Counted from the stretch's first letter, positions 13,300 through 15,484 are shown. The stretch is DNA of 64,000 nt from Eledone cirrhosa (GCA_964016885.1 OZ024745.1:2480001-2544000); one strand, 5' to 3'. A program made the numbers and translations. The notes: a model not told the origin generated them from the letters alone.

Positions 13300-13622
13300 T
13301 ATTTGTGTATAGTGGTAGCTATGGTGCTTCCATAGGCAGTATGCCAAAATTAGCACTCGATATTCATCAGAGTAAAGTGTATATATTATAAAGAAAACGA
13401 AAAATCAGTGATGCATCTGGACTTAGTTTATTTCGTGTTACAAATGTTTCGCCGGCATGTAGCTCAAGACATAGTCCTTGTATGGATCTGGCTGATTCTA
13501 CTTCTGCGGGTTCTTTCAGACACGGGTGTTATGTCCGGAGCAAATTTTATGACATGCCGGCGAAACATTTGTAACACGAAATAAACTCATGATGCATCAC
13601 TGATTTTTCGTTTTCTTTATAA
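13300..13622 (-). mobile_element. Family C Penelope-like terminal fragment with fold-back inversion, in (TA)n
   Basis: Inverted arms about 13385-13460 and 13552-13622, hammerhead motif, TA flanks. Confidence 0.65.
13434..13524 (-). ncRNA. Type I hammerhead ribozyme motif, degenerate
   Basis: CGTGT CTGAAAGA [long stem II CCCGCA..GTAG...CTAC.TGCCGG] GAAAC ATTT GTA ACACG; one extra nucleotide in the core. Confidence 0.55.
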
Positions 13623-13673
13623 TATATATATATATATATATATATATATATATATATATATATATATATATAT

Positions 13674-13867
13674 AACAAAGGAAATGTGGTAAGGAACCAG
13701 GTGGACTATAACGCACCAAAGTACTCAATACTTTAGGTAGTAGAGTGGGTAATAGGAACAAGTATGACCCCGACGGCAGAGCTCAAGCCGTTTCGACGGC
13801 TAATTCTGGACAGAATTAGCCATCGAAACGGCTTGAGCTCTGCCGTCGGGGTCATACTTGTTCCTAT
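13674..13867 (-). mobile_element. Family A element with terminal inversion
   Basis: About 62-bp inverted arms centred near 13810; flanked by (TA)n. Confidence 0.85.
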
Positions 13868-13883
13868 ATATATATATATATAT

Positions 13884-14219
13884 GGTGGCTGCCAACTCGT
13901 TTTCGAGTACGGCCATTACTTTATATCCCTGTAGAAGAACCCCTACCGATGCGCTAAACAAGTGTGACTTTTTAGTCCAGCCAGCGACTTGAAAACTCTA
14001 GTACAAGCACTACACCTGTGACAATTATTGACACATAGTGCTGGGCCCATGGTATCATGTGACGACAAGTGCAGAGAGATCTCCAGATATAAAGCAATGC
14101 CTGTGCCGTGAAGCTTTTATAGTGAGCAAAAGCACTGTACAAAGCCAGTCCCACTCTCTTAACCAAGATGATATTTACCAAAAAGAAGAACAAGTCAACA
14201 TCATTGGATACCATCAGGG
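13884..14219 (-). mobile_element. RTE-like non-autonomous element, 5'-truncated copy
   Basis: Reverse complement of about 21330-21667, with the same 3' end GGCAGCCACCA. Confidence 0.75.
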
Positions 14220-14366
14220 TATATATATATATATAACGTTTATATATATATATATATATATATATATATATATATATATATATATATATATATATATATA
14301 TATATATATATATATATATATATATATATATATATATATAAACGTTTGTATATATATATATATATA

Positions 14367-14523
14367 TAGGAACGAGTAGGACCCCGACGGCTGAGCTCAA
14401 GCCGTTTCGACGGCTAATTCTGGACATCCAGAATTAGCCGTCTACTACCCACTCTACTACCCTAAGTATTGAGTACTTTGGTGCGTTATGGTCCACCTGG
14501 TTCCTTACCACATTTCCTTCGTT
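14367..14523 (+). mobile_element. Family A element, inversion plus internal deletion
   Basis: GACGGCTAATTCTGGA-CA-TCCAGAATTAGCCGTC hairpin followed by the family A 3' tail. Confidence 0.8.
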
Positions 14524-14535
14524 ATATATATATAT

Positions 14536-14704
14536 AATATAGATGAGATTCTACAGGACTAGAGCTATTTCATTCTTTAGAAATCATCAGGAATCAATGA
14601 AACAGTTCTAGTCCTGTAGAATCTCATCTATATTAAAACTTTCAATACTCTGCAATGTATTGAGTACCTTACTTACTGTGGTTACCTCCCATTCAACCCG
14701 GAAT
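14536..14704 (+). mobile_element. Family B element with 5' inversion
   Basis: Inverted arms about 14536-14574 and 14596-14634; homologous to 15326-15484. Confidence 0.8.
14547..14595 (-). ncRNA. Type I hammerhead ribozyme motif
   Basis: GATTC CTGATGA T-TTC-TAAA-GAA-T GAA ATAG CTCTAGTC CTGT A GAATC: stem I 5 bp, stem III 4 bp, GUA site; U-U closes stem II. Confidence 0.75.
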
Positions 14705-14730
14705 AACGTATATATATATATATATATATA

Positions 14731-15024
14731 GGTATTGAAATTTCCGTTGAAAACAGAAAAGGTCATAGAAGTGAAGAGTGCTCTATGTAAGTATCAGAGC
14801 AAAATTTAATGTATAAAAATCAATACAATATAATTACCTCATTACCAGAGGTTTCCCGAATGAGGCGAATACGAAAGAAACGTCTTCATTCGTTCGTCAG
14901 ACGAGGCAATATAAAACATGGGTAAATACTTGGAAAGTATCATCAAGAAAAGCAAAAAGAACAAAAAAGATATAGACAAATGAATTAGAATATGAAATAT
15001 ATAATAATCTTTCAAGAAATATAG
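14731..15024 (-). mobile_element. Family D Penelope-like terminal fragment
   Basis: On the minus strand: pyrimidine tract, hammerhead, 3' stem-loop, then (TA)n. Confidence 0.6.
14833..14910 (-). ncRNA. Type I hammerhead ribozyme motif
   Basis: ATTGCCTCGT CTGACGA A-CGAATGA...TCATTCG-G GAA ACC TCT GGT A ATGAGGTAAT: 10-bp stem I (2 G-U), 7-bp stem II, 3-bp stem III, GUA site. Confidence 0.8.
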
Positions 15025-15079
15025 TTAGGTGTGTGTATATGTATGTATATACATATACACATATATTTCCAATGCGTTT

Positions 15080-15262
15080 GAGAGAGATAGGAGGGGGAGA
15101 GGGGGGAGGAGGGGGAGAGGGAGAGAGAGAGGGAGAGAGAGGGGAGGGGGGAGGGAGAGAGAGAGGGGTGAGGGAGAGAGAGAGAGGAGGGGGAGGGGTA
15201 GAGAGAGAGGAGGGGGAGAGGGAGAGAGAGCAGCAGAGAAACAGAGAGAGTTAGAGAAAGAG
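15080..15262. repeat. GA-rich polypurine tract
   Basis: Direct reading. Confidence 0.9.
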
Positions 15263-15325
15263 ATGTATGTATATATATATATATGTATATATATATATAT
15301 GTATATATATATATATATATATATA

Positions 15326-15484
15326 TTCCGGGTTGAATGGGAGGTAACCACAGTAAGTAAGGTACTCAATACATAGCAGAGTATAAAAGTTTTAATATAG
15401 ATGAGATTCTACAGGACTAGAACTGTTTCATTCTAAAGAATGAAACAGTTCTAGACCTGTAGAATCTCATCGATATTAAAACTA
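15326..15484 (-). mobile_element. Family B element with inversion centred on the stem II loop (TAAA)
   Basis: ...CTAGAACTGTTTCATTC taaa GAATGAAACAGTTCTAG..., arms about 47 bp. Confidence 0.8.

Follow-up and report, generated by a model that had tools for sequence, protein, structure and literature searches.

Introduction

The closest described relatives of the elements reported here are the Penelope-like elements (PLEs) of the Hydra clade, a group defined by RWK and DKT motifs, a linker of the form CxCX5C, the loss of CCHH, CxxC and CxH motifs at the C-terminus, canonical hammerheads and insertion into (TA)n (Craig 2021, PMC8557442). A length of less than 3 kb is described as a tendency of the clade and not as diagnostic, and Hydra-1_Obim of Octopus bimaculoides is listed as a member (PMC8557442). 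For another PLE, Poseidon_Ac, it has been described that reverse transcription starts internally at two sites that define the tail, that both strands of the target are cut and extended and that hammerhead mutants are without effect on insertion in vitro (PMC11167929). Open questions for PLEs are how the reverse transcriptase (RT) start is chosen, why the tail is found on one side only and what role the hammerhead plays (PMC8557442; PMC11167929). Here we describe positions 13300-15484 of a 64,000-nucleotide stretch of the 3.0 Gb genome of Eledone cirrhosa (GCA_964016885.1 OZ024745.1:2480001-2544000; the whole stretch is called the window). This region is a chain of short repeats with (TA)n runs between them. 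The four kinds of terminus that it contains are almost certainly the ends of four families of Hydra-clade PLEs, and the insertions are probably 5'-truncated, mostly fold-back copies in (TA)n, for which RT would have started inside uncut RNA at two fixed sites, one for each nicked strand of the target.

Results

Insertions in the region

The families were labelled A, B, C and D in this analysis, as were F, G and K, which are mentioned below. Family A is found at 13675-13864 and 14369-14522, B at 13303-13621, C at 14535-14708 and 15324-15482 and D at 14731-15052. Of the six insertions, five fold back on themselves, each with a long and a short arm, and that of family D is without an inverted arm. 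The distance from the hammerhead cut to the long end, referred to as the tail, is 97 nt in A, 136 nt in B, 89-97 nt in C and 112 nt in D, and blastn between the four termini gave no match of more than 22 nt. An initial annotation, made from the sequence, had described four elements of dissimilar sequence that shared a hammerhead, a tail of about 85-135 nt and then (TA)n. The dissimilarity holds, and so do the tails (89-136 nt) and the hammerheads of B, C and D, which are complete; for family A, on the other hand, only the 3' half is present. Genomic loci fetched for comparison are given L-numbers, most of them having been chosen by queries containing the tail or the hammerhead. The features of the region are as follows.

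13303-13553, minus strand: family B long arm, 5'-truncated, with the hammerhead of the pseudo-long terminal repeat (pLTR) and the tail
13434-13524, minus strand: family B type I hammerhead, the core of which is the variant CUGA-AA-GA (an insertion of A6a type); cleavage predicted between 13439 and 13438
13355-13373, minus strand: family B tail hairpin, ACTC-TG..TA-TC-GAGT
13552-13621, plus strand: family B inverted short arm, with hammerhead 3' half, a small internal deletion and the short end
13675-13811, minus strand: family A long arm, with hammerhead 3' half and tail; predicted cut between 13772 and 13771
13723-13746, minus strand: family A tail hairpin, ACTC-TACT..AGTA-TT-GAGT
13811-13864, plus strand: family A inverted short arm
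14369-14424, minus strand: short arm of the second family A insertion
14425-14522, plus strand: long arm of the second family A insertion, which has lost the part from GAAA to the cut site through an internal deletion; its tail hairpin is at 14451-14474
14535-14596, minus strand: family C short arm with a full canonical hammerhead at 14547-14595 (core CUGAUGA); cleavage predicted between 14552 and 14551
14596-14708, plus strand: family C long arm; tail hairpin at 14647-14665
14731-15052, minus strand: family D 3' end without inverted arm, with the end of the 3' untranslated region (UTR), a canonical hammerhead at 14833-14910 (core CUGACGA) and the tail hairpin at 14780-14800; predicted cut between 14843 and 14842
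15324-15482, both strands: second family C fold-back, 3' halves only, with a long arm at 15324-15436 (minus; hairpin at 15364-15382) and a short arm at 15429-15482 (plus)
13245-13302, 13622-13674, 13865-13882, 14220-14368, 14523-14534, 14709-14730 and 15266-15323: (TA)n target runs flanking the insertions

Coding parents of the four families

Extension of the families to coding sequence, as the initial annotation had proposed, reached a parent open reading frame (ORF) for all four. A single ORF with RT and, at the C-terminus, a GIY-YIG endonuclease (EN) is joined to the terminus in L152 for A, in L201 and L357 for B, in L322 for C and in L096 and L098 for D. The D locus L098 holds a full pLTR-ORF-pLTR unit of about 3.7 kb, and in the full family A element of L152 the ORF pieces (5349-7453) lie between pLTRs at 5259 and 8639. 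For family B, RT, EN and terminus follow one another in L201, the ORF is also linked to the terminus in L357 and L358, and 23 copies read through the tail towards the ORF start. A short DNA query for linking family C to an ORF gave no match and the link was made through read-through copies, three of which go from the tail directly into the ORF (L307, L312 and L317/L322), with RT and EN in L322. Two other ORFs found upstream of C copies, that of L234, which has its own hammerhead and tail, and that of the L241/L269 family, which has its own pLTR, were rejected as the C parent, since they belong to other families nested in the C microsatellite tract. The ORF copies examined for A, B, C and D contain frameshifts or stops. 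In the window itself tblastn with three Hydra-like proteins found no match, in agreement with the initial statement that no RT or GIY-YIG ORF lies there.

The proteins carry the motifs of the clade. At the N-terminus RWK is found in D and RWR in A, B and C, with RW[KR] in 78 of the 120 listed homologues, many of which are N-terminally truncated. DKG is changed to DKT, as SDKT, in A, B (L358), C and D. The CxCX5C linker ahead of the EN is present in all four families and in 114 of the 120 listed homologues. CxxC inside GIY-YIG is present in none, D having no cysteine there, A and B one and C two that are widely spaced, and the CxxC and CxH that flank the catalytic E and N are seen in A (L148), B (L147) and D (L097), the single C copy being broken at this point. 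A 42-residue RT block of D is identical to that of Hydra-1_Obim at 27 positions, as counted by eye. With RT pieces that are 45% (A) and 35% (B) identical to D, these are distinct families. The units are longer than the Hydra tendency of less than 3 kb (3.4 kb in A, 3.7 kb in D and more than 4.6 kb from RT to terminus in B) because of microsatellite-like 3' UTRs and, in B, an insertion in the ORF.

A protein model of family A, built from 120 of 521 homologues, has a mean predicted local distance difference test (pLDDT) score of 86.9, and a fold search with it matched RTs including those of retrons, DRT, group II introns and telomerase (best E 4.9e-7); this confirmation of the RT fold by a model applies to family A only. 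Two results count against the assignment: Pfam gave no RT family for these ORFs and a sub-threshold GIY-YIG match for C only, and a sequence search of the PDB gave no match. The placement of the four families in the Hydra clade, of which we have very little doubt, is based on motifs and comparison by eye. The Naiad/Chlamys PLEs, with an N-terminal EN and no hammerhead, are ruled out by the C-terminal EN and the hammerhead folds. The linkage to Hydra ORFs, together with the five fold-backs, confirms the suggestion of Penelope-like termini with inverted fragments. The insertions are thus new members, in distinct families, of a known clade; as a kind they are not new, since a Hydra clade with hammerheads and (TA)n targeting has already been published (PMC8557442). 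None of the four families was matched to any of the published consensus sequences compared.

Hammerhead folds and their cores

A type I descriptor scan of both strands of the whole window returned two minus-strand folds, with the exact positions 14833-14910 and 14547-14595. When the TA-stripped region was dinucleotide-shuffled 1000 times, no fold was seen in 998 shuffles, one fold in two and two folds in none. The fold at 13434-13524 (minus strand), which has stem I CGTGT/ACACG, the variant core and a stem III of just 2 bp, was missed by the strict descriptor and picked up by a relaxed scan; forcing this hammerhead costs 1.5 kcal/mol above the minimum free energy (MFE). In the window family A supplies hammerhead 3' halves only, and a complete A hammerhead is found at L010, where the three-stem fold is the MFE structure. 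The three folds and the A halves that had been drawn initially are therefore borne out by the scans and shuffles. An Rfam search, which had been proposed alongside the descriptor, did not support them: no hammerhead model was among the 38 matches up to E=10 in region 13300-15484, a result that speaks against the hammerheads, as do the weak single-sequence folding z-scores of B (-0.79) and C (+0.83), that of D being -2.28. For the whole window, no hammerhead model was among the 150 of 262 Rfam matches listed, which are miRNA-like models on palindromes and microsatellites.

The core has the canonical form described for the Hydra clade in most copies of C (113/139) and D (35/37). In families A and B, however, variants are family-wide. 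The A core reads CTGAGAAG in 24 of 35 copies and is either one base short or carries G8A (conventional hammerhead numbering), while the B core reads CTGAAAGA in 55 of 73 copies and has one extra base. Insertion after A6 of the hammerhead (A6a) is described as giving low activity (PMC3088659). In the fetched loci hammerhead-bearing termini form 17 clusters of at least two copies, some of them merged or noisy, which agrees with the proposed radiation of several families.

Two ends within (TA)n

With duplicates removed, the copies that end inside the reference do so in (TA)4+ in 160/167 cases for A, 72/81 for B, 214/235 for C and 37/40 for D. The unbiased subset is formed by incidental copies in loci fetched for other families, which number 88 for A and, as weighs against our interpretation, no more than 24 for C, nine for D and six for B; within it the same ending is found in 83/88 A, 6/6 B, 18/24 C and 6/9 D copies, against a background of 0.09 in a random 200-kb sample. 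The targeting of TA that had been inferred from the region alone is thus confirmed.

Families A, B and D have two sharp end modes each, 78-84 nt apart: reference positions 114 (n=65) and 194 (n=72) in A, which together take 137 of the 160 copies, 146 (n=26) and 230 (n=30) in B, and 107 (n=8) and 185 (n=23) in D. Family C has two broader end groups, in part because C loci were chosen with end-anchored patterns. The element sequence after nearly every end mode starts with TA, the exceptions being a C mode at 73-74 and the later long-end positions of C. The two ends are usually used together. Leaving out 25 inverted pairs that lack a TA end, 145 of 154 pairs with TA at both ends join a long to a short end (A 53/60, B 18/18, C 69/71, D 5/5), and among pairs with at least one long end the proportion is 145/151, above the two thirds expected under independent choice.

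The hammerhead and the RNA templates

The 5' ends of the copies are rarely at the predicted cut (+/-2), being found there in 1/160 A, 1/72 B, 7/214 C and 0/37 D copies (9/483 in total) and in 1/83 incidental A copies, so that the templates would seem to have been mostly uncut at this hammerhead, although against this it must be said that products of less than about 50 nt from cleaved RNA would escape blastn. In family A the 5' ends cluster inside loop II (64/90 incidental copies at reference positions 50-69) and in C at the 5' arm of stem I (16/19 incidental copies at 0-19); we infer that transcription may start at these hot spots. The CUGA half is absent from 111 of 160 A stubs, and the B and C hammerheads of the window lie inside predicted fold-back duplexes of -76 and -58 kcal/mol. 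It would seem likely that the ribozyme does not cut the RNA templates of these copies, and uncut templates with buried hammerheads fit the result obtained with hammerhead mutants in vitro (PMC11167929).

These data bear on another explanation, given in part by the initial annotation, in which the elements would be ribozyme-processed, non-autonomous mini-retroelements or retrozymes with an RNA trimmed or circularised by the hammerhead. The canonical cores kept in most C and D copies would be expected from this, the abundance of short copies with family-specific 5' hot spots could be accounted for by it, and animal retrozymes have been proposed to derive from PLE pLTRs (bioRxiv 10.64898/2026.07.22.740005). 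It is nevertheless very improbable given the rarity of starts at the cut, the missing CUGA halves, the non-canonical cores of most A and B copies and the predicted burial of the window B and C hammerheads. Non-LTR retrozymes were rejected because the window copies are single or fold-back stubs with no tandem monomers and each of the four families has an ORF; all four elements are truncated ends of coding elements, and neither processing by a ribozyme nor the status of mini-element is supported.

The tail hairpin

All four tails contain RCTC, a stem, a loop, the second strand of the stem, a 2-nt bulge and GAGY. There are 370 instances of this motif ahead of a TA run, and these form 19 clusters with at least two members, some of which, as has to be counted against the interpretation given below, are small or possibly other repeats. 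The outer pair over these clusters is A:T in 11, G:C in six, G:T in one and A:C in one (Fisher p 0.0017, relatedness ignored), and the bulge begins with T in 17 of the 19. The motif was present in 5/2000 shuffled tails. In 11 of the 13 clusters that have at least two short ends, the short-end mode is 5-12 nt ahead of the hairpin. Folding z-scores of the tails were -3.43 for D, -1.97 for C and -1.63 for B. Six hairpins aligned with MAFFT fell out of register, and this alignment was discarded.

A second hairpin is located 6-10 nt past the long end in A, B and K, the one in B being taken from individual read-through copies as the pattern used for automated counting was too strict and returned none. 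In the L156 and L158 families, where long ends are unmapped, it lies just 5' of the ORF. Among published Hydra consensus sequences (PMC8557442) the motif can be seen by eye in the tails of Hydra-2_Amil and Hydra-2_Ajap and twice at the 5' end of Hydra-1_Ajap, while in Hydra-1_Amil and Hydra-1_Crog it is doubtful. In the literature searched, which included the main text and supplement text of PMC8557442 and lay outside subscription journals, Repbase and Dfam, the hairpin was not found.

A model for the insertions

The coding parents, the TA targets, the two ends, the pairing of long with short, the copies that span the cut and the position of the hairpin lead us to the following mechanism. The EN would nick both strands of a TA run, and each 3'-OH would pair with a UA a few bases 5' of the bulged RCTC..GAGY hairpin, which would position the RT. 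Copying would proceed towards the 5' end of the RNA and usually halt within 50-300 nt, at the likely transcription start or at pLTR structure, and the two cDNAs would be linked in head-to-head orientation. For a full-length copy, initiation would have to take place in the downstream pLTR of a tandem transcript. We lean towards this hairpin-guided mechanism, in which the hairpin likely places the internal RT starts, with somewhat less assurance than we have in the two fixed starts themselves.

In the main alternative, the ends would be determined on the side of the DNA, through recognition or resolution by the EN at the tail or through TA microhomology. The hairpin would in that case be a site recognised in the DNA, a promoter, an element for translation or a site of RNA binding without a part in placing the start. 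The tail has been ascribed to EN-mediated resolution (Craig 2021, PMC8557442), the EN of D. virilis needed the tail for recognition (cited in PMC11167929), TA follows nearly every end mode and the long end of C has no canonical hairpin, all of which would fit. Yet TA dinucleotides are common in the tails while just two sites take 137 of the 160 A copies, the spacing between end and hairpin is kept in 11 of 13 clusters, and the tail ends of Poseidon_Ac are RT start sites in vitro (PMC11167929). We therefore regard ends set on the DNA side as unlikely.

Several observations weigh against RT starts placed by a hairpin. The ends of C are scattered and include the mode at 73-74, which has no TA after it. 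No canonical second hairpin was seen past the long end of C in three read-through copies, and in two copies of D there is a GCTC 6 nt past the long end with a non-canonical 3' arm. The second hairpin was also undetected in F and G, a candidate in G having failed the motif test, and the tail hairpin of A is no more stable than shuffles (z +0.37).

It is an even question whether the hairpin is an RNA signal of the Hydra clade as a whole, with a UA priming site ahead of it and usually present twice, that would set the start of a telomerase-related RT, with the hammerhead being dispensable. That the core drifts in two thriving families (A and B) suggests such dispensability. If true, this signal would explain the PLE tail, the preference for (TA)n and the long/short fold-back insertions, and, as the motif is seen by eye in Hydra consensus sequences from corals and sea cucumbers, target-primed insertion would have in it a start signal that is portable.

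Abundance and surroundings

A first look at the genome gave 1540 (A), 1563 (B), 367 (C) and 1757 (D) candidates, 40 of each being scored, which are not copy numbers. A sample of 200 kb, taken at even spacing from the four largest contigs, contained three loci each for A and C and none for B and D, and estimates from a sample of this size are rough. Five further family A insertions lie in the window, at 9611-9655, 24347-24482, 25004-25215, 29882-30078 and 30347-30472.

The cluster consists of insertions that piled up independently in a stretch rich in TA. One might consider instead a functional array, since the density is high (family A has seven insertions in the window's first 34 kb versus three in the random 200 kb), or fortuitous matches in DNA of low complexity, but the folds passed the shuffle test, the copies are 95-99% alike genome-wide and the same families are nested in differing orders at other loci. 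These readings are already largely refuted and we consider them extremely improbable.

In several respects the families show features beyond those of the region. In the ORFs of families B and K the RT thumb is separated from the EN by long insertions of low complexity (L201:2557-4308, L357 and L356), which resemble those described for Adineta Penelope (PMC3846280). Two further Hydra families have open ORFs, of 830 residues at L269:5856-8345 (minus strand) and of 894 residues at L356:2913-5594 (plus strand); the former has at least 150 matches with 93-97% protein identity, which suggests recent activity. The 3' UTRs of B, C and D (L098, L145, L234 and L322) contain long TA/TG microsatellite-like tracts into which other elements insert, and the elements would therefore bring their own targets and spread microsatellite-like DNA. 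At G000:C10:27314994-27327695 (L205, L206) family C termini recur at distances of about 1.8, 2.5 and 4.1 kb from one another, which is probably due to local tandem duplication and not to a retrozyme array.

Other repeats adjoin the insertions. At 13097-13245 (plus strand) is the 3' end of another TA-inserted repeat, with about 30 matches in the fetched loci, which in L005 is preceded by GCGAAAC-CG-GTA, a minimal hammerhead 3' half. At 12620-12849 and 12844-13083 a palindrome with 115-nt arms adjoins a match to the terminus of an element in L237 that is downstream of a GIY-YIG-like coding stretch, and this is probably another PLE fold-back. Between the A copies, at 13883-14219 (minus strand), lies an unrelated, TA-flanked repeat with about 26 matches, in which no hammerhead was seen and which at other loci is about 600 bp long, L182 having a remnant of C2H2-like coding sequence. 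A 26-bp satellite with about 1215 copies takes up almost half of the window (34549-64000), and there are also 62-bp and 16-bp satellites and a near-perfect 100-nt palindrome (16564-18799; 26515-29009; 25910-26009).

Discussion

As elements, the insertions are ordinary and abundant stubs of a described retrotransposon clade, and their use is mechanistic. The families supply ends whose positions are exact, a hairpin that is a candidate for the start and shows compensatory changes from family to family, natural exceptions to it (C and D) and variant hammerhead cores (A and B). The related open ORFs of 830 and 894 residues, together with the end and hairpin data, make the questions about PLE starts testable in vitro. 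The remaining interest lies in the hairpin and the end geometry, supported here with the two exceptions of C and D.

Compared with animal non-LTR retrozymes, the insertions have in common a type I hammerhead, small size and a relation to PLE pLTRs; retrozymes, however, are described as non-coding tandem repeats with a hammerhead in each unit, whereas the copies here are dispersed truncations of coding elements (bioRxiv 10.64898/2026.07.22.740005). A term search of PMC13282606 gave no hit for Hydra, hammerhead or ribozyme.

The inverted pLTR arrangement described for PLEs (PMC8557442) and for Adineta Penelope (PMC3846280) is shared, with a head-to-head inverted 5'-truncated copy and the tail on one arm. 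The one-sided tail here is about 80 nt as against 30-40 bp in the PLEs described, and target-site duplications are unreadable in (TA)n.

With Poseidon_Ac (Frangieh 2024, PMC11167929) the insertions share two ends that define the tail, a stem-loop tied to the starts, AT-rich targets and a hammerhead whose cleavage is dispensable in vitro in that system. Poseidon_Ac belongs to a different PLE clade and its starts lie in an AC-rich stem-loop inside the ORF (PMC11167929), whereas the ends mapped here in genomic copies are found immediately 5' of a bulged hairpin of conserved sequence in the 5' UTR.

The closest agreement is with the Hydra clade itself (PMC8557442), with which the four families share a single ORF for RT and an EN of the GIY-YIG type at the C-terminus, the motif set, a type I hammerhead near the 3' end and (TA)n targets. 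The pattern of family C, CUGAUGAU..UGAA, is the same as in many of the rows of Hydra hammerheads in File S2 of that work. The families described here differ from the published members of the clade in their longer units and in the variant cores of A and B, and the tail hairpin goes unmentioned in the main and supplement text of that work.

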